6,063 nt of DNA from a virus. The translations under genes and the position numbers were made by a program. The stretch is taken from IMG/VR virus record IMGVR_UViG_3300020030_000106, positions 1 through 6,063 of that record. One strand, 5' to 3'. The stretch's first letter is position 1. Each line of letters starts with the position of its first letter. The notes below the pieces were generated by a model. The model saw only the letters and a program-made list of their open reading frames with translations. It had not been told where the DNA came from and searched no databases. Of the stretch, positions 2,299 to 6,063 are shown piece after piece.

Positions 2299-3558
2299 AT
2301 GCCTATTCCTGTTGCCGCTGCTGCTTCTTTTGGACAGGCTCTTGGTCAGTCTGCTGCCTCTACTGGCTCTTCCGGCCTGATTAATGGTTTTTTGGGTCAG
2401 CTTTTTGGCGGCATGAATGCTCGTCGCCAATGGCGATTTCAGCAGAAACAAATGAAGCTTCAGCAGAAGTACGCCCTCGAGCAGATGCAGAAGCAATCCG
2501 AACTTTCTTATGCTAATTGGCAAAGACAGTTTGACTATGAAAACGCTTACAACGATCCTTCGAAGGTCTTCGATCGCTACTTGAAAGCCGGTGTTACGCC
2601 TGCTGCAGTGCTTGGCTCTTCCGGTGTTGGTGTGAATGCTACTATGTCCGGTGGTTCTGCAGGTATGCCTTCCGCTTCTGGTCCTTCAGGTGGTGCACCT
2701 GTTTCCCCTGGCGCTTTTGCTCCTGGCGATCCTGCTGCTATTGCGCAAAACATGATTGCGCGTTCTACGGTTGATCGTAATACTGCTGCCGCTAATCGAG
2801 ATGAGGCAGAGGCTGATAATCTTCGTGGTAATACTCATACTCAGGATTGGCGTAAACGGATGGATGATCTTGAGTTGCAGATTGCTCAGCATAATGTTAA
2901 AGATGCCCGTGAACTTGCTAATCTTCGTGAGGCACAGGCTCAAATTGGAGCAATCGACGCTTACCTTTCTAGTATTACGCAGGGTTACAAAATGTCCTCT
3001 ATTATGGCCATGGCTGGTATTTTGGAAGAAAAGTACCAAAATCTCCGTTTGACGAATGATTGGTTCGAACCTCAAGCCGGCGCGGCTCTTGCTGTTGCCT
3101 GGTCTTCCGCAATCGCAAATGTTTCCTCTGCTGCTGAATCTGAATCTCGTATAAAGCTTAACGCCCAGGAACTTAAGGATATGCAAAACTGGTACGAGTT
3201 GAATTGGAAAAAGGATGTTCCCGTTCAGATTCGTAATGATAAAGGTGAAGTCGTTGAGACTAAAATGATGAAAGTTGCTGAGACTATGGCTATTTTGAAG
3301 TCCGCTGCTGCTGAAGCGGCTCAGCTTGAAACTGGAAATGCCCGTTGGGATTTGCGTAACTCCAGGCTTCGTCTTGCTCATGACGTTGTTCGATCTTTCG
3401 CCACCGCCGCAGGCATTGCCGGCGCTTCGTATGTTGGCCGCAAGGCTGCAGGTCCTGCCGGTCCTGAAGGTTATGAGGAAGTGAGAGAGATTTACGGTCC
3501 TTCAGGTACCCCCACTGGTAGTACCTTTACTCGTCGCAGCTATCTTGGGAGAAATTGA
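2299..3558 (+). CDS. VP2: Minor capsid / DNA pilot protein (Microviridae VP2, phiX H-like), 419 aa
   Basis: ATG 2299, TGA 3556..3558. The N-terminal segment is Gly/Ala/Ser-rich and hydrophobic (MPIPVAAAASFGQALGQSAASTGSSGLINGFLGQLFGG), reminiscent of the phiX174 H N-terminus. It is followed by Q/K/E-rich heptad-like stretches (RRQWRFQQKQMKLQQKYALEQMQKQ) and a motif YNDPSKVFDRYLKAGVTPAAVLG that resembles the conserved ...K-x-AGLNP-x-L region of gokushovirus VP2. Size and position fit a pilot protein. Confidence 0.85.
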   Translation: MPIPVAAAASFGQALGQSAASTGSSGLINGFLGQLFGGMNARRQWRFQQKQMKLQQKYALEQMQKQSELSYANWQRQFDYENAYNDPSKVFDRYLKAGVTPAAVLGSSGVGVNATMSGGSAGMPSASGPSGGAPVSPGAFAPGDPAAIAQNMIARSTVDRNTAAANRDEAEADNLRGNTHTQDWRKRMDDLELQIAQHNVKDARELANLREAQAQIGAIDAYLSSITQGYKMSSIMAMAGILEEKYQNLRLTNDWFEPQAGAALAVAWSSAIANVSSAAESESRIKLNAQELKDMQNWYELNWKKDVPVQIRNDKGEVVETKMMKVAETMAILKSAAAEAAQLETGNARWDLRNSRLRLAHDVVRSFATAAGIAGASYVGRKAAGPAGPEGYEEVREIYGPSGTPTGSTFTRRSYLGRN

Positions 3559-3581
3559 ACAGTTTTTTCGACTTTTTGATC

Positions 3582-3613
3582 TTTGCGTGTTGTGTTCTTT
3601 TGTTGTAACTTTG
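3582..3613 (+). promoter_or_regulatory. Candidate Bacteroides-type promoter (-33 TTTG / -7 TAnnTTTG)
   Basis: TTTG at 3582..3585 and TAACTTTG at 3606..3613 are separated by 20 nt, 28 nt upstream of ATG 3641, in the T-rich VP2-to-ORF spacer. In such T/G-rich sequence a chance match is quite possible. Confidence 0.25.
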
Positions 3614-3640
3614 TGGAACAAAACCAATAACCCTACTATT

Positions 3641-3952
3641 ATGAAAAAAAACAAGTTCAATCGCAGTCTCCTCACCCTGGATGTCGCTGATTATCTGTTT
3701 GTTGAATGGCTTATCCGTAATGATTGCTATTCGAAGTTCGCGGCGAATCTTTCTGGTAACTCCGATTGCGATATTCCCCGAGAGGCTATTCGCTGCCATC
3801 TCTCTCTTATTTTGCGTAGTAACTCTATGACTCTTCGCAATGCGATTTCTACGGCCTTCCTGTTTCTTCATACGCCCGAAGGCGAAGACTATTGGTGCTC
3901 CATCGAACTGAGGTGGATAGCTTTTCTTGATGAGTTTAATGTTCAACTTTAA
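3641..3952 (+). CDS. Hypothetical protein, 103 aa, no recognisable family
   Basis: ATG 3641 (the track start 3545 is a TTG that overlaps the VP2 end), TAA 3950..3952. Codon usage resembles the core genes (ctt, cgt, tct, gat). It contains four Cys and starts with an A8 run (3644..3651). Confidence 0.55.
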   Translation: MKKNKFNRSLLTLDVADYLFVEWLIRNDCYSKFAANLSGNSDCDIPREAIRCHLSLILRSNSMTLRNAISTAFLFLHTPEGEDYWCSIELRWIAFLDEFNVQL

Positions 3953-3964
3953 ATTTTTTTTCTT

Positions 3965-4288
3965 ATGACACAGATTCATGTCGTTATTCGGCGATCTAAT
4001 CCCTCTTTCAAAATTGACCTTGTCCAGGTTGGTCATATCCAGGAAGGTCAGTTCGCCACTCTTCCTTTTGACACACTTAACTGCGCGCCTCTTACGTCCT
4101 TTATAAAGCGTTCCAGTATCTCTGATTCGCCTTATATTGACCATAGCGATGTTTCTCGTCTTGTGGAGGCTTTAACCATGTATTTGAACTTCGCAGTCGA
4201 GTTTTTCGACAATACGCTTGTTCTTATGTTTGACCTTAATCTTGATCATAATGAAAGCACGTCGGAAGAAGAAGGGAAAGGGAACTAA
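3965..4288 (+). CDS. Hypothetical protein, 107 aa, acidic C-terminal tail, no recognisable family
   Basis: ATG 3965, TAA 4286..4288, 12 nt after the previous stop, across a T8 run and in the same frame. By hand count 18 of its first 40 codons end in T, as in the core genes. The tail is DHNESTSEEEGKGN. Confidence 0.6.
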   Translation: MTQIHVVIRRSNPSFKIDLVQVGHIQEGQFATLPFDTLNCAPLTSFIKRSSISDSPYIDHSDVSRLVEALTMYLNFAVEFFDNTLVLMFDLNLDHNESTSEEEGKGN

Positions 4289-4335
4289 AGTAGTTACCCG
4301 CCCGCTTGGTGGCCGAGTCCTCTAGTTTATTGTAT

Positions 4336-4359
4336 CCCGGGAGAGAATCCTCTCCTGGG
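4336..4359 (+). other. Hairpin: 10-bp stem, AATC loop
   Basis: cccgggagag-aatc-ctctcctggg; ten consecutive pairs, including one G-T/G-U wobble (4339-4356). Confidence 0.6.
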
Positions 4360-4421
4360 CTTTCTTGCTCGCAAACTCACCGAACTCGTTCGGTATATCC
4401 CTTGTGTAGTGGAGCCACGGA

Positions 4422-4462
4422 GCTCGAAGACGCGTAGCGTCCCGGCCGTTAGGCCGTCGAGC
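4422..4462 (+). other. Compact three-way junction (41 nt, 16 bp)
   Basis: The closing stem pairs 4422..4427 with 4457..4462 (gctcga/tcgagc). Arm A pairs 4429..4433 with 4437..4441 (gacgc-gta-gcgtc). Arm B pairs 4443..4447 with 4452..4456 (cggcc-gtta-ggccg). The junction linkers are 1, 1 and 0 nt. Confidence 0.55.
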
Positions 4463-4482
4463 GGCGTAACGAAACAGTTTTC

Positions 4483-4511
4483 GCGCTCGAAAGTGCCGTC
4501 TTTCGAAGCGC
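4483..4511 (+). other. Hairpin: 11-bp stem with one bulged A, 6-nt loop
   Basis: gcgctcgaaag-tgccgt-ctttcga(a)gcgc; A4507 is bulged. The stem ends 20 nt before ATG 4532 and is followed by TATTTTTG (4519..4526), which matches TAnnTTTG. Confidence 0.55.
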
Positions 4512-4531
4512 ATGGTAATATTTTTGTTGTT

Positions 4532-4732
4532 ATGGATAGATTTGATTTTCGTCCTAGATTTTCTCCGATAGTTAATAGTATTCCTTATCGTTATTCTATT
4601 GGTGCATATCGCGGAAAAAAACGAGTTATTATTGCTTGGTTTTCCGACGAAGAACCTGCTAATGATTACCTTGCTCGCTGTCGTTTTGATCATCCTGGTG
4701 TTAAATTTGATTGCCTTCGAAGTTTACTCTAA
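4532..4732 (+). CDS. Hypothetical small protein, 66 aa, stop/start-overlapped with Rep
   Basis: ATG 4532; TAA 4730..4732 overlaps Rep ATG 4732..4734 (TAATG). T-rich third codon positions resume exactly here. The track start (GTG 4409) lies in the G3-rich structured spacer and is less likely. Confidence 0.5.
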   Translation: MDRFDFRPRFSPIVNSIPYRYSIGAYRGKKRVIIAWFSDEEPANDYLARCRFDHPGVKFDCLRSLL

Positions 4733-5802
4733 TGCCCTGTTCATCGCCCATATGGATACGGAATCGCCGTTATTTCGACAAGAAGAATCCTTGTCGCAAC
4801 GGTTCTGATGTCGCAAGGTCTGCTCTTGCCCTTCGGCCCTGGGATGTCGCACGCCAATGGCTTATGGTCCCCTGCGGAAAGTGCGAAGACTGTCTTCGTC
4901 GTCAGCGTAATGATTGGTTTGTGCGCCTGGAGCGCGAACTTGCTTTTTGCAAGGCTAATGATCAGCAGGCTATTTTCATTACAATAACGATCGCCCCGAA
5001 GTATTATAATGAGGCCCTGCTTAATCCTTCTCGATTTATTCGTCGATTCAATGAGCGTTTGCGTCATAAACTTGGTCATTCGTTTAAACATGCTTTTTTC
5101 CAGGAGTTTGGAACTCACCCGGAAACAGGAAACGAACCTCGATTGCATTTTCATGGCTTCCTTTTTGCGACAAATGCCCTTTACAACACTATTCGTTCGG
5201 CCGTTCGAGACCTTGGCTTTGTGTGGTTAGCGAAGGCTACTCACAAGCGTGCTCGTTATTGCGTTAAGTACGTTACTAAACAAATTCATTTTAATCCCGA
5301 AGAAATTTCGGATAAATATGTTACTGTAGATGGAAAACCTACACCTTTATCTTGCCTCCTCCAACATCGCCGCTATACGCGAAAATTCGTATCTGCTGGC
5401 GTTGGTGATTTTCTTGGTTATATGCCTCGCCCTTCTGCTCGTGTTTCGTCGTGGTCTTATTTCGATCTTAAGACTGGTATCGATTATAATTACTCGATTC
5501 CTCGATATTATCTTAAATATCTCAAACCGGAAGACGAAGTTGCTCGCTCAATTACCGCTGCTGATGCTTATGCACGTTTTAGCAAGTCTTCTTTGGTTAA
5601 GCGTATTGTGTCTCTGTGCGTTGAGCGGTTCGCCCTCAATTCCGCCGTATCCCGTAGAGCATCGTATACGTGGGAACAGAAGCAAATGATGCGCTTTTCC
5701 GAATCTTCGCGGAAGATGCCCGACTTTGACCCTCCCACCTGGCTGGATTTGGATATTCTTCGGTTCTGGAGAGATCATTATAAACTTCAACTAATTACTT
5801 AA
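4732..5802 (+). CDS. VP4: Rolling-circle replication initiation protein (Microviridae VP4, phiX A-like HUH endonuclease), 356 aa
   Basis: ATG 4732 gives MPCSSPIWIRN..., a typical VP4 N-terminus (the track start 4711 is a TTG). Supporting motifs are the Cys cluster PCGKCEDCLRRQRNDW, motif 1 FITITI, the HUH motif HFH at 5146..5154 (RLHFHGFLF), and the two-tyrosine motif YCVKYVTK at 5257..5280 with the Y-x-x-x-Y spacing of the phiX174 A active site. TAA at 5800..5802. Confidence 0.93.
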   Translation: MPCSSPIWIRNRRYFDKKNPCRNGSDVARSALALRPWDVARQWLMVPCGKCEDCLRRQRNDWFVRLERELAFCKANDQQAIFITITIAPKYYNEALLNPSRFIRRFNERLRHKLGHSFKHAFFQEFGTHPETGNEPRLHFHGFLFATNALYNTIRSAVRDLGFVWLAKATHKRARYCVKYVTKQIHFNPEEISDKYVTVDGKPTPLSCLLQHRRYTRKFVSAGVGDFLGYMPRPSARVSSWSYFDLKTGIDYNYSIPRYYLKYLKPEDEVARSITAADAYARFSKSSLVKRIVSLCVERFALNSAVSRRASYTWEQKQMMRFSESSRKMPDFDPPTWLDLDILRFWRDHYKLQLIT

Positions 5803-5805
5803 TTT

Positions 5806-6063
5806 ATGGGAAAACAACCTTTTATTTCTCACGCTGTAAATGGCTATTCTCGTTACGATGTTCCTGAGAGTAAGGCCTTTACGTGCACACCGGGTATTTT
5901 GTATCCAGTGCGAATCGATTTTATTAATGCTCGAGATCGTGTATCTATTGAGCAGGGCATCGACGTTCGCAGTAATCCACTCGCTGTTCCGACGTTCAAT
6001 CCCTACACTATTCGACTCCATCGTTTTTGGGTGCCGCTTCAGTTGTATCATCCTGAATTGAGG
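5806..6063 (+). CDS. VP1: Major capsid protein, N-terminal part (runs off the window end; 5943..6063 duplicates 1..121)
   Basis: ATG 5806 lies 3 nt after the Rep stop. The frame is open to the window end, so it is absent from the ORF track, which requires a stop. Translation: MGKQPFISHAVNGYSRYDVPESKAFTCTPGILYPVRIDFINARDRVSIEQGIDVRSNPLAVPTFNPYTIRLHRFWVPLQLYHPELR. Nt 5943 is a third codon position, which matches frame 2 at nt 1..2. Confidence 0.85.
   Translation, partial: MGKQPFISHAVNGYSRYDVPESKAFTCTPGILYPVRIDFINARDRVSIEQGIDVRSNPLAVPTFNPYTIRLHRFWVPLQLYHPELR
5943..6063 (+). repeat. Terminal direct repeat, copy 2 (identical to 1..121)
   Basis: Exact 121-nt identity with the window start. Confidence 0.97.

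Follow-up and report, generated by a model that had tools for sequence, protein, structure and literature searches.

An exchangeable folded cassette upstream of the Rep module of a Bacteroidales gut microvirus, a candidate complementary-strand origin

The complementary-strand origins of the coliphages phiX174 (n'/PriA primosome assembly site), G4 (primase origin) and M13 (minus-strand origin) are built from hairpins of the packaged strand, which presumably escape coating by single-strand-binding protein and recruit host priming enzymes. The G4 origin comprises three hairpins and that of M13 two long imperfect ones, and in coliphages such origins are, as far as we know, fixed parts of the genome. 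The sso elements of rolling-circle plasmids (ssoA, ssoU, ssoT, ssoW) are non-coding, about 150-300 nt long and extensively folded. They are active only on the displaced single strand and are thus orientation-bound, they employ host factors and not the Rep of the replicon, and they are interchangeable between unrelated replicons and dispensable at a cost. To our knowledge, the mode of complementary-strand initiation is not known for microviruses outside the coliphages. Such microviruses count among the most abundant gut DNA viruses.

The window, i.e. the whole 6,063-nt stretch of DNA that was analysed, contains a circular microvirus genome (unit 5942 nt, terminal redundancy 121 nt). The phage is a small ssDNA gut microvirus of ~5.9 kb with VP1, VP2 and Rep all on the + strand, and the hosts of these phages are Bacteroidales, not enterobacteria. 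An initial annotation, made from the sequence, had pointed to a structured, G+C-rich island at 4289-4531, and this observation is confirmed. Its hand count of about 57% G+C was too high, the computed value being 54.3% compared to 45.2% for the rest of the genome, with up to 58% in the window 4301-4500. The claimed richness in CG dinucleotides holds (26 CpG, top ~1% of 243-nt windows), as does the position of the island, which in this window immediately precedes ORF 4532-4732 and Rep and lies in the sense of their mRNA. The annotation had proposed folding against dinucleotide-shuffled controls, and the island was more stable than all 200 shuffles whether folded as ssDNA of the + strand (z = -4.89), as RNA (z = -3.87) or as ssDNA of the - strand (z = -3.62). 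In a genome-wide scan of 50 windows (mean -0.44, sd 0.89), the three most negative z values belonged to the three windows that overlap the island. Here, z was -4.68 for the exact island, -4.41 for the three-way junction taken alone and -3.58 for the cassette described below; by ssDNA folding, no other part of the genome is as structured as the island. Both the 10-bp hairpin at 4336-4359 and the three-way junction at 4422-4462 were found where they had been placed, and there is an additional hairpin at 4379-4394. A hairpin at 4483-4511 exists as well; rather than the 11-bp stem assigned to it, comparative data prefer a lower stem of 3 bp, a 2x1 internal loop and an upper stem of 7 bp.

In agreement with the initial annotation, the island holds no ATG ORF of at least 30 aa. 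It might still be read as ordinary or decaying coding sequence, namely as an N-terminal extension of the 66-aa ORF (GTG 4409 in frame), a TTG ORF at 4306-4437 or a minus-strand ORF at 4322-4693. Such mechanical ORFs exist, and in the window the frame shared by both flanking ORFs happens to stay open through all 243 nt. However, one to four stops interrupt this frame in 28 of 29 relatives, and none of the frames is open throughout the set. Indels and spacer length differences among the relatives are not multiples of three, their variable columns lack 3-periodicity (52/43/41), and the island's ORFs gave no match to Pfam or PHROGs. The stops, the non-triplet indels and the missing periodicity indicate that the island is non-coding, and we consider a coding origin extremely improbable. 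An Rfam search of the window (E up to 10) gave no hit within or close to 4289-4531, and a search of eight related loci that carry the other cassette types (E up to 1) gave none either, so that the scan suggested by the initial annotation assigns the island to no Rfam family. A tRNA/tmRNA search found none.

The island had been described as one element. It is indeed structured, but it is not a single unit; rather, it is a composite of element A, hairpin B and an exchangeable cassette at ~4373-4511. Element A (4289-4326, + strand) comprises the 38 nt directly after the stop of ORF 3965-4288. All 63 related spacers carry it at their 5' end irrespective of length (98-265 nt), and 22 of its first 35 positions are conserved at 95% or more. 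Its possible hairpin (4298-4302/4308-4312) varies by G.T and T.G only and shows no double compensations. Since lineages 2 and 3 (see below) yielded no match to it, element A is lineage-specific and lies outside the exchangeable cassette; it is a candidate Rep-specific or regulatory site. Hairpin B (4336-4368, + strand) is terminator-like, with a 10-bp stem (4336-4345/4350-4359) followed by the T-rich tail CTTTCTTGC. Seven of its ten pairs are G-C, the loop has 4 nt and the tail on the mRNA strand reads CTTTCTTGCT. In relatives the pairing is kept while the sequence varies (A1 alignment, columns 50-55/66-71; pair 54/67 is AU 12, GC 9 and AC 9 times), and 43 of the 63 relatives possess at least five T within 10 nt after the hairpin. 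Hairpin B probably acts as an intrinsic terminator for the genes upstream of it. It resembles intrinsic (Rho-independent) terminators in its G+C-rich stem, its T-rich tail and the survival of its stem through sequence turnover, whereas the cassette hairpins, without T-runs in lineages 2 and 3, are unlike them. The position of the lineage-1 cassette downstream of this terminator-like hairpin was counted in favour of an ssDNA element, and so were the absent Rfam match and the lack of a conserved promoter on the cassette strand of lineage 3. The island ends with the AT-rich tail ATGGTAATATTTTTGTTGTT (4512-4531, + strand), which precedes the ATG of the 66-aa ORF (4532-4732). This tail does not depend on the presence of the cassette, its motif GTAATATTTTT being retained also in short cargo-free spacers. 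It may harbour the promoter of the Rep module or the region where its translation starts; a promoter scan of 3500-5000 found no sigma-70-type promoter.

The cassette spans ~140 nt (about 4373-4511) and combines hairpin H2 plus TATAT, a three-way junction and hairpin D. Its left end (4373-4399, + strand) is made up of AAACTCAC, H2 (4379-4384/4389-4394) and the TATAT motif (4394-4398). H2 covaries (A2 alignment: pair 17/24 is GC 39 and AU 37 times, pair 15/26 is CG, UA or UG), TTTTGTCCRCAAACTCAC is common to lineages 1 and 2, and in each type of cassette a TATA(T/C)A motif directly precedes the structured domain. The near-invariant segment TAGTGGAGCCACGGA (4407-4421, + strand; consensus GAAGTGRAGCCAYGGAG) is apparently unpaired, and over 76 copies each of its columns is either invariant or conserved to at least 90%. 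Its GCC 4414-4416 may pair with GGC 4463-4465, a pairing that never varies in the 76 copies. The three-way junction, termed C1 (4422-4462, + strand), is formed by the stems P1 (6 bp, 4422-4427/4457-4462), P2 (5 bp, 4429-4433/4437-4441) and P3 (5 bp, 4443-4447/4452-4456). P2 carries a G-N-A triloop (4434-4436) that is closed by C-G and whose middle base takes all four bases, and P3 carries a GTTA(A) loop (4448-4451). In 76 distinct copies every pair cell of C1 is paired. Compensatory changes were found in P1 (59/98: CG 44, GC 31, AU 1; 60/97: UA 38, CG 37, GC 1), in P2 (66/76: AU 74, GC 2) and in P3 (80/92: GC 43, AU 24, CG 9; also 83/89). The linker (4463-4481, + strand) consists of an invariant GGCG and a weak 3-bp hairpin (4468-4470/4477-4479), which is 99.6% paired and varies by G.U only. 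Hairpin D (4482-4511, + strand) forms the right end. An internal loop separates its lower stem (4482-4484/4508-4510) from its upper stem (4487-4493/4500-4506), which carries a 6-nt loop, TRCCGY. The hairpin is placed after either C1 or a second module, C2, and including its loop it is almost invariant in >130 genomes of three lineages. As hairpin D shows no covariation, what is conserved is its sequence.

Across the 76 distinct copies, 99.9% of 2811 pair cells of the cassette are paired, compared to 20-41% in slid controls. Compensatory double changes occur at seven pairs (145 cells), which was reached by none of 500 shuffles. Covariation in relatives, which the initial annotation had suggested looking for, is thus seen in the cassette and indicates that its structure is real and selected. 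Furthermore, all 12 one-sided changes in C1+D are G.T or T.G on the cassette-sense strand (A.C 0), and module C2 has consensus G.T pairs on that strand, including in its lineage-3 copies. With wobble pairs found only there, the folded structure is specific to the cassette-sense strand. None of the 37 consensus pairs of C1+D is G.U, which together with the G-N-A triloop fits DNA hairpins; G-N-A triloops are unusually stable in DNA.

A presence in all relatives was not observed: 12 of the 63 related spacers are cargo-free and contain element A and hairpin B only. These relatives have no compensating cassette elsewhere, their extra length being due to a longer VP2. In other spacers the same slot holds different folded modules (C1, C2, C3). 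Comparative folding gives C2 as a single rod-like hairpin, and a hammerhead-like reading made by eye was dropped on this account. Three microvirus lineages share the cassette with an identity of 92-100%. Between lineages 1 and 2 the identity of C2 is 100% over 101 nt, and C1+D of lineage 3 is 94% identical to that of lineage 1. This is the case despite a Rep identity of about 28-30% between these lineages. A horizontally acquired segment, mentioned as an alternative in the initial annotation, is therefore what we find for the cassette, and the comparison indicates that it is optional and horizontally exchanged between unrelated microviruses. Because its identity is that high among phages with dissimilar Rep, the cassette is independent of the phage Rep and of gene context. 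The pattern favours a host-linked rather than a phage-linked element. It occurs as one copy per genome, in a non-coding region. PLSDB plasmids gave no match to it, and a blastn search of 50,697 phage records (word size 11) hit nothing but three records of microviruses from this group; in the literature we found no description of it. The core of hairpin D produced 21 hits in representative bacterial genomes, which lay within ordinary coding genes or were otherwise unrelated, and where the core patterns of C1 and C2 hit large viral contigs, this was by chance and within coding DNA of high G+C content.

The orientation of the cassette is of particular relevance for its interpretation. It lies on the gene strand in 128 lineage-1 and 11 lineage-2 genomes, whose third codon positions show T at 0.38-0.44 and A at 0.11-0.14. 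In all 15 lineage-3 genomes it is antisense to the genes, and there the third codon positions show T at 0.12 and A at 0.37. Consequently, the cassette-sense strand is the T-rich strand in 154 of 154 distinct genomes from three lineages. The orientation follows the T-rich strand and not the genes, with only three independent lineages contributing to this pattern. A preference for NNT codons has been described as signature of a strand that exists as ssDNA (PMC3278643), and the T-rich strand is thus presumably the packaged one. The inverted cassette and the mirrored codon bias could then mean that the lineage-3 clade, which includes MG945515 and its relatives bajarodmic virus 761, Dulem virus 214 and Tortoise microvirus 11, packages the strand antisense to its genes, and that the cassettes are laterally exchanged, host-specific complementary-strand origins. 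We put this forward as a possibility that is on balance doubtful. No report of a microvirus with such a negative-sense polarity was found in the literature. In lineage 2 the cassette is located after VP2, ~535 nt before a dif-like attachment site. In lineage 3 no conserved promoter or upstream element was found on the cassette strand, the upstream DNA being the antisense of the Rep start, and neither there nor in lineage 2 does a T-run follow hairpin D.

Our preferred, yet tentative reading is that 4373-4511 represents an accessory, exchanged cis-acting element that works as folded ssDNA on the packaged strand and is a candidate complementary-strand origin; we assign it a probability of roughly 45%. 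Such an origin had been proposed in the initial annotation for the island as a whole. Covariation, the wobble pairs of the sense strand, the orientation along the T-rich strand and the independence of Rep speak for it, and in single-stranded form the cassette is a non-coding cluster of stable hairpins, as expected for an origin. Against it stands the lack of sequence similarity to the origins of phiX174, G4 and M13 (blastn, 50,697 phage records). Two further findings were counted against it: the TATA(T/C)A before every cassette type, which might be the -10 element of an RNA gene, and several G.T pairs in C2, as seen in structured RNAs. The argument from orientation assumes that T-richness marks the packaged strand, in which case lineage 3 would package the non-coding strand. 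One might envision the following scenario. The circular ssDNA would enter its Bacteroidales host, where the host single-strand-binding protein would coat all but very stable hairpins, leaving bare the hairpins H2 and D and the three-way junction, whose loops are G-N-A and GTTA. This protein-free folded patch could be recognised by a host priming machine, be it RNA polymerase, primase or a PriA-type primosome, which would prime the complementary strand and thereby turn the genome into the double-stranded replicative form. Reliance on host proteins instead of the phage Rep would allow unrelated microviruses that share hosts to swap the cassette. Both the priming function and the host factor in this scenario are what we infer. 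As 12 of 63 related spacers are without cargo, the cassette is not essential, which likewise speaks against this reading; phages lacking it must convert their ssDNA in some other way.

Besides such an origin, a small ncRNA gene could be envisioned, in which TATATA is a -10-like element and hairpin D the 3' end, and whose product is a trans-acting accessory, e.g. an anti-defence or host-regulating RNA. This alternative, which was also raised in the initial annotation, accounts for the TATA(T/C)A directly 5' of every cassette type, for the covarying structure with wobble pairs on the sense strand and for an optional, horizontally mobile nature like that of phage accessory genes, and a self-contained unit would tolerate the antisense placement of lineage 3. 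However, it gives no reason why the orientation tracks the T-rich strand in three lineages. It is weakened further by the absent Rfam match, by the lack of a sigma-70-type promoter and of a conserved upstream element on the cassette strand of lineage 3, by the missing T-run after hairpin D in lineages 2 and 3, and by the absence of G.U from the consensus pairs of C1+D. The promoter consensus of Bacteroidetes is TAnnTTTG, to which no match was seen in a check by eye only. Overall, we hold an RNA gene to be unlikely. If the structure acted as RNA within the Rep-module mRNA instead, i.e. as a cis-acting structured leader that determines how stable this message is or how well the 66-aa ORF and Rep are translated from it, its place directly upstream of both on the mRNA-sense strand and its good folding as RNA (z = -3.87) would be explained. 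Yet the same cassette is antisense to all genes in 15 lineage-3 genomes, stands after VP2 and ~535 nt before the dif-like site in lineage 2, is preceded by a terminator-like hairpin and is lacking in 12 of 63 close relatives that have the same downstream genes. Inverted placement and optional presence refute the structured leader listed in the initial annotation, and we regard it as very improbable.

An element bound to one strand, optional, in one copy per genome and present in three unrelated lineages might as well have another ssDNA function or be selfish. It could be a hairpin-ended mobile element that moves through ssDNA, resembling palindromic elements derived from IS200/IS605, or it could fold into a decoy or protection site that keeps host nucleases or defence sensors from the ssDNA. 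In both cases, a link to the single-stranded form of one strand would be expected as well; for an ssDNA decoy we know of no precedent. Hairpins at both ends (H2, D) fit a selfish element, and so does a short imperfect direct repeat that flanks the cassette (GGTATAT at 4392-4398 and GGTAATAT at 4514-4521) and is found as a single copy in cargo-free spacers. However, this repeat is weak in lineages 2 and 3, no transposase is linked, the cassette invariably occupies one non-coding region, ahead of the Rep module, and representative bacterial genomes and larger phages yielded nothing except chance matches in coding DNA. In addition, the internal domain is strongly constrained and covarying, which transposon ends alone do not require. 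Thus we deem this group of explanations quite unlikely.

As a candidate complementary-strand origin, the cassette is defined, conserved, ~140 nt long and directly testable. That unrelated phages exchange it laterally suggests a module specific to the host, which could affect host range and mark shared hosts. Should its orientation report the packaged strand, genome polarity could be called from sequence only, and a negative-sense clade of Microviridae would be implied. Should the cassette turn out to be RNA, it would represent a new class of phage-borne structured RNAs that is absent from Rfam.

Among known systems, dif-like XerC/XerD sites of Bacteroidales microvirus proviruses, enterobacterial gokushoviruses and CTX phage resemble the cassette in their location in non-coding regions of ssDNA phages. 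Cassette-carrying lineage-2 relatives integrate at a dif-like site, as was published for related proviruses (PMC3091885, PMC7062461). In contrast to such sites, the lineage-2 cassette lies ~535 nt away from the point of integration. A first impression that it marks the edge of prophage L146 was abandoned, given that the free form L095 maps the junction to the dif-like site ~535 nt further. A search of the window for a dif-like 28-bp site with a TTATGTTAAAT-like XerD arm revealed no convincing motif; the best match to TTCATTATGTTAAAT has 3 mismatches in 15, is situated outside the island at 4241-4255 on the - strand and is attributable to chance, as 49 of 200 shuffles match.

With the coliphage origins of phiX174, G4 and M13 the cassette has in common that it is an intergenic hairpin cluster, made of H2, the three-way junction and D, or of the rod C2. 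It differs from them in its sequence, in its Bacteroidales rather than enterobacterial host and in being optional and laterally exchanged. The CS-6 hexamer of ssoA, TAGCGT, does occur at 4435-4440, where its first base is the variable middle of the triloop (A/C/G/T) and the rest falls into a stem; it is unconserved. Compared to plasmid sso elements in general, the cassette lacks similarity to PLSDB plasmids, is carried by phages instead of plasmids and is only a putative origin. What it shares with them is the non-coding, extensively folded make-up, the presumed use of host factors, the exchangeability across unrelated Rep proteins, the strand-bound orientation and the dispensability.

The 6063 bases of the window represent one circular microvirus genome, consisting of a 5942-nt unit and a 121-nt terminal redundancy. 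The + strand is rich in T (33% versus 22% A; 47% T at third codon positions) and carries every recognisable gene: the major capsid protein VP1, which wraps the genome ends and extends to 1663, the pilot protein VP2 (2299-3558), two orphan ORFs (3641-3952 and 3965-4288), a 66-aa ORF (4532-4732) and the rolling-circle Rep, which ends at 5802. The redundancy (1-121 and 5943-6063) has the same length in the window and in 8 of 9 IMG/VR contigs checked (L005, L022, L030, L039, L040, L044, L056, L072); this common length is probably an assembler overlap at circular contigs and not biology.

Between the second orphan ORF and the 66-aa ORF lies an island (4289-4531) that the initial annotation described as G+C- and CpG-rich and densely folded. 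Enrichment was found for both, with 54.3% G+C versus 45.2% in the rest of the genome and 26 CpG dinucleotides (top ~1% of windows), while the G+C value itself had been put at ~57%. The stems it had named were recovered at the same positions, and the island is far better folded than its dinucleotide shuffles (z = -4.89 as ssDNA, -3.87 as RNA, -3.62 for the complementary strand). Furthermore, the three lowest z-scores of a genome-wide scan of 50 windows belong to the three windows overlapping it. The island is non-coding, since its mechanically called ORFs gave no match in Pfam and PHROGs, no open frame is common to all relatives (that of the window contains 1-4 stops in 28 of 29), indels among relatives are not multiples of three and substitutions lack 3-periodicity. 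No Rfam family, tRNA or tmRNA matched the island either. One reading frame spans the ORF at 3965-4288, the whole island and the 66-aa ORF, separated solely by the TAA at 4286-4288; among 30 sequences, the island is stop-free in this frame only in the window and in one relative (L033), and the shared open frame across 3965-4732 is probably due to chance.

A Rep-based IMG/VR search delivered 80 close relatives (Rep 84-93% identical), from which 63 spacers with both flanks, reaching from the upstream ORF stop to the ATG of the 66-aa ORF, were compared. They range from 98 to 265 nt and are composite. Element A (4289-4326, 38 nt, consensus AGTAGTGACCCGCCCGCTTGGTGGAAGAGTTCTTTAAC) is found in all 63 regardless of cargo; of its first 35 positions, 22 are conserved to at least 95%. 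The two other cassette-carrying lineages gave no match to it; being conserved in lineage 1 (that of the window) only, it could be a Rep-specific site, perhaps the Rep recognition/nick region, or it might be a regulatory site. Hairpin B (4336-4359) varies in sequence with its pairing preserved and is followed by a T-rich tail; given this terminator-like look, it probably terminates the structural-gene block. An AT-rich tail precedes the ATG of the 66-aa ORF in every spacer.

The cargo in between is optional, with 12 of 63 spacers lacking any. Module C1 consists of hairpin H2 and TATATA, followed by an invariant stretch and a three-way junction (4422-4462), module C2 of a rod-like hairpin of roughly 95 nt, and each may or may not be accompanied by hairpin D. 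The window carries C1+D (cassette at about 4373-4511), as do 30 of the 63 spacers. Module C3 (L011, L051, L049, L276-L278) is a small three-way junction inserted in the loop of hairpin B, the form present in the pig-faeces GenBank relatives MG945784, MG945813 and MG945141. A GAA triloop caps each of its two arms, in one case within GCGAAGC, a heptamer that forms an exceptionally stable DNA mini-hairpin. An imperfect direct repeat brackets the cassette (GGTATAT, 4392-4398; GGTAATAT, 4514-4521). Cargo-free spacers such as that of L030 have one GGTAATAT copy; in lineages 2 and 3 the repeat is weakly developed. A deletion/insertion scar or a target duplication could account for it.

Hairpin D was searched for in IMG/VR and public metagenomes, and the cores of C1, C2 and C3 in IMG/VR; cassettes turned up only in microviruses of about 6 kb or prophages thereof, chiefly in gut samples of humans, pigs and dogs. 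Matches in large contigs and, for hairpin D, in representative bacterial genomes were chance hits inside coding DNA. The carriers form three lineages: that of the window, lineage 2 with the gene order hyp-Rep-VP1-hyp-VP2, and the MG945515-like lineage 3, whose Rep is about 28-30% identical to that of the window. Nevertheless, the C2 modules of lineages 1 and 2 show 100% identity over 101 nt, and lineage-3 C1+D matches lineage-1 copies at 94% identity. Judged from these sequences, the cassette moves between unrelated phages, which agrees with the earlier proposal of a horizontally acquired segment. One lineage-2 contig of 8343 nt (L211, from ERZ1024489) contains hairpin D twice (491-514 and 3145-3168, about 2.65 kb apart), which could reflect a prophage in tandem or rearranged form, or an error of assembly.

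Lineage 2 includes prophages. One of them (L146; IMGVR_UViG_3300029376_000308, 2330-8167, reverse strand) is bordered by bacterial genes on a Bacteroidales contig; the best named homologue of a flanking gene stems from an uncultured Alistipes (66% identity), so that the host is a member of the Bacteroidales. Imperfect dif-like repeats flank it (attL ..ATATATTCATTATGTTAAAT, attR ..ATACTTGTCATTATGTTAAAT, attP ..ATACTATTCATTATGTTAAAT). Comparison with its free form L095 places the junctions at a dif-like site whose TTATGTTAAAT arm is perfect. The distance from this site to the cassette is about 535 nt, which rules out the cassette as attachment site. Integration of the XerC/XerD type has been published for Bacteroidales microviruses (PMC3091885; see also PMC7062461), and these junctions agree with it. 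The window itself contains no dif-like site. Further prophage contigs are L188, L200, L204, L213 and L217.

The structure of the cassette is under selection. In an alignment of 76 distinct C1+D copies, scored against a specified structure, 99.9% of 2811 pair cells hold standard pairs, and both-sided, compensatory changes occur at 7 pairs (145 cells). None of 500 column shuffles, which like the E-values ignore shared ancestry, equals the alignment in pairing, in the number of double changes or in covariation score; several independent pair types per position and cross-lineage copies lessen this concern. If partners are slid by 1-3 columns, pairing falls to 20-41%. The three-way junction offers the clearest examples: in its stem P1 one pair occurs as CG 44 / GC 31 / AU 1 and the next as UA 38 / CG 37 / GC 1; stem P3 has GC 43 / AU 24 / CG 9 and H2 GC 39 / AU 37. 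The 37 consensus pairs include no wobble, and the 12 one-sided changes all yield G.T or T.G when read in cassette sense, never A.C. Stem P2 is capped by a C-G-closed G-N-A triloop, with N being any of the four bases. C2 folds into a single long imperfect hairpin; across 14 sequences, 10 of its pairs covary, and the several G.T pairs of its consensus likewise lie on the cassette-sense strand. The sequence is near-invariant in a GGCG linker, in the segment GAAGTGRAGCCAYGGAG and in hairpin D, which points to sequence-specific recognition in addition to shape; the predicted pairing of D and of the putative GCC/GGC helix shows no variation.

The cassette lies on the gene strand in 128 lineage-1 and 11 lineage-2 distinct genomes, and opposite to it in 15 of 15 lineage-3 genomes (IMG/VR, ENA human-gut assemblies, GenBank). 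Codon bias is mirrored along with it: third positions have T 0.12 and A 0.37 in lineage 3, versus T 0.38-0.44 and A 0.11-0.14 in lineages 1 and 2. Thus cassette sense is the T-rich strand everywhere, an argument drawn from three independent lineages, in which base composition stands in for the packaged strand. Published work describes NNT codon preference as a signature of the strand existing as ssDNA and ascribes it to mutation pressure from C to T (PMC3278643). In lineage-3 C2 copies the G.T pairs stay on the cassette-sense strand, while the gene-sense strand would have A.C mismatches. An A-rich coding strand (third positions A 0.34-0.60, T 0.08-0.20) extends across a whole microvirus clade, comprising lineage 3 (L081 = MG945515.1, L096, L116, L122, L133, L193-L223) and others (L226-L229; PQ006995, MW202703, PP511402, MK765561). 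This is the mirror image of the T-richness usual in ssDNA phages and suggests that the clade may package the strand antisense to its own genes; we found no published account of microviruses doing so in the literature.

What might the cassette do? The structured RNA leader considered initially is excluded, since the cassette is antisense in lineage 3, has other gene neighbours in lineage 2 and is missing from close relatives. A self-contained small-RNA gene draws its main support from a TATA(T/C)A motif conserved upstream of every cassette type, yet it is less likely, because promoter and terminator features are missing and the strand rule speaks against it. In lineage 3, the cassette is preceded by the antisense of the Rep start, where no conserved promoter-like element was seen. 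Another ssDNA role, or a selfish hairpin-ended element, is slightly less probable again. The best fit, to which we assign a probability of about 0.45, is a cis-acting ssDNA element: folded on the packaged strand, the cassette would be read by host proteins and would start the complementary strand, the known role of such elements in ssDNA phages and rolling-circle plasmids. The plasmid single-strand origin (sso) is the nearest parallel. Such origins are structured, orientation-bound, host-specific, interchangeable and dispensable, properties that the cassette, on this reading, would share.
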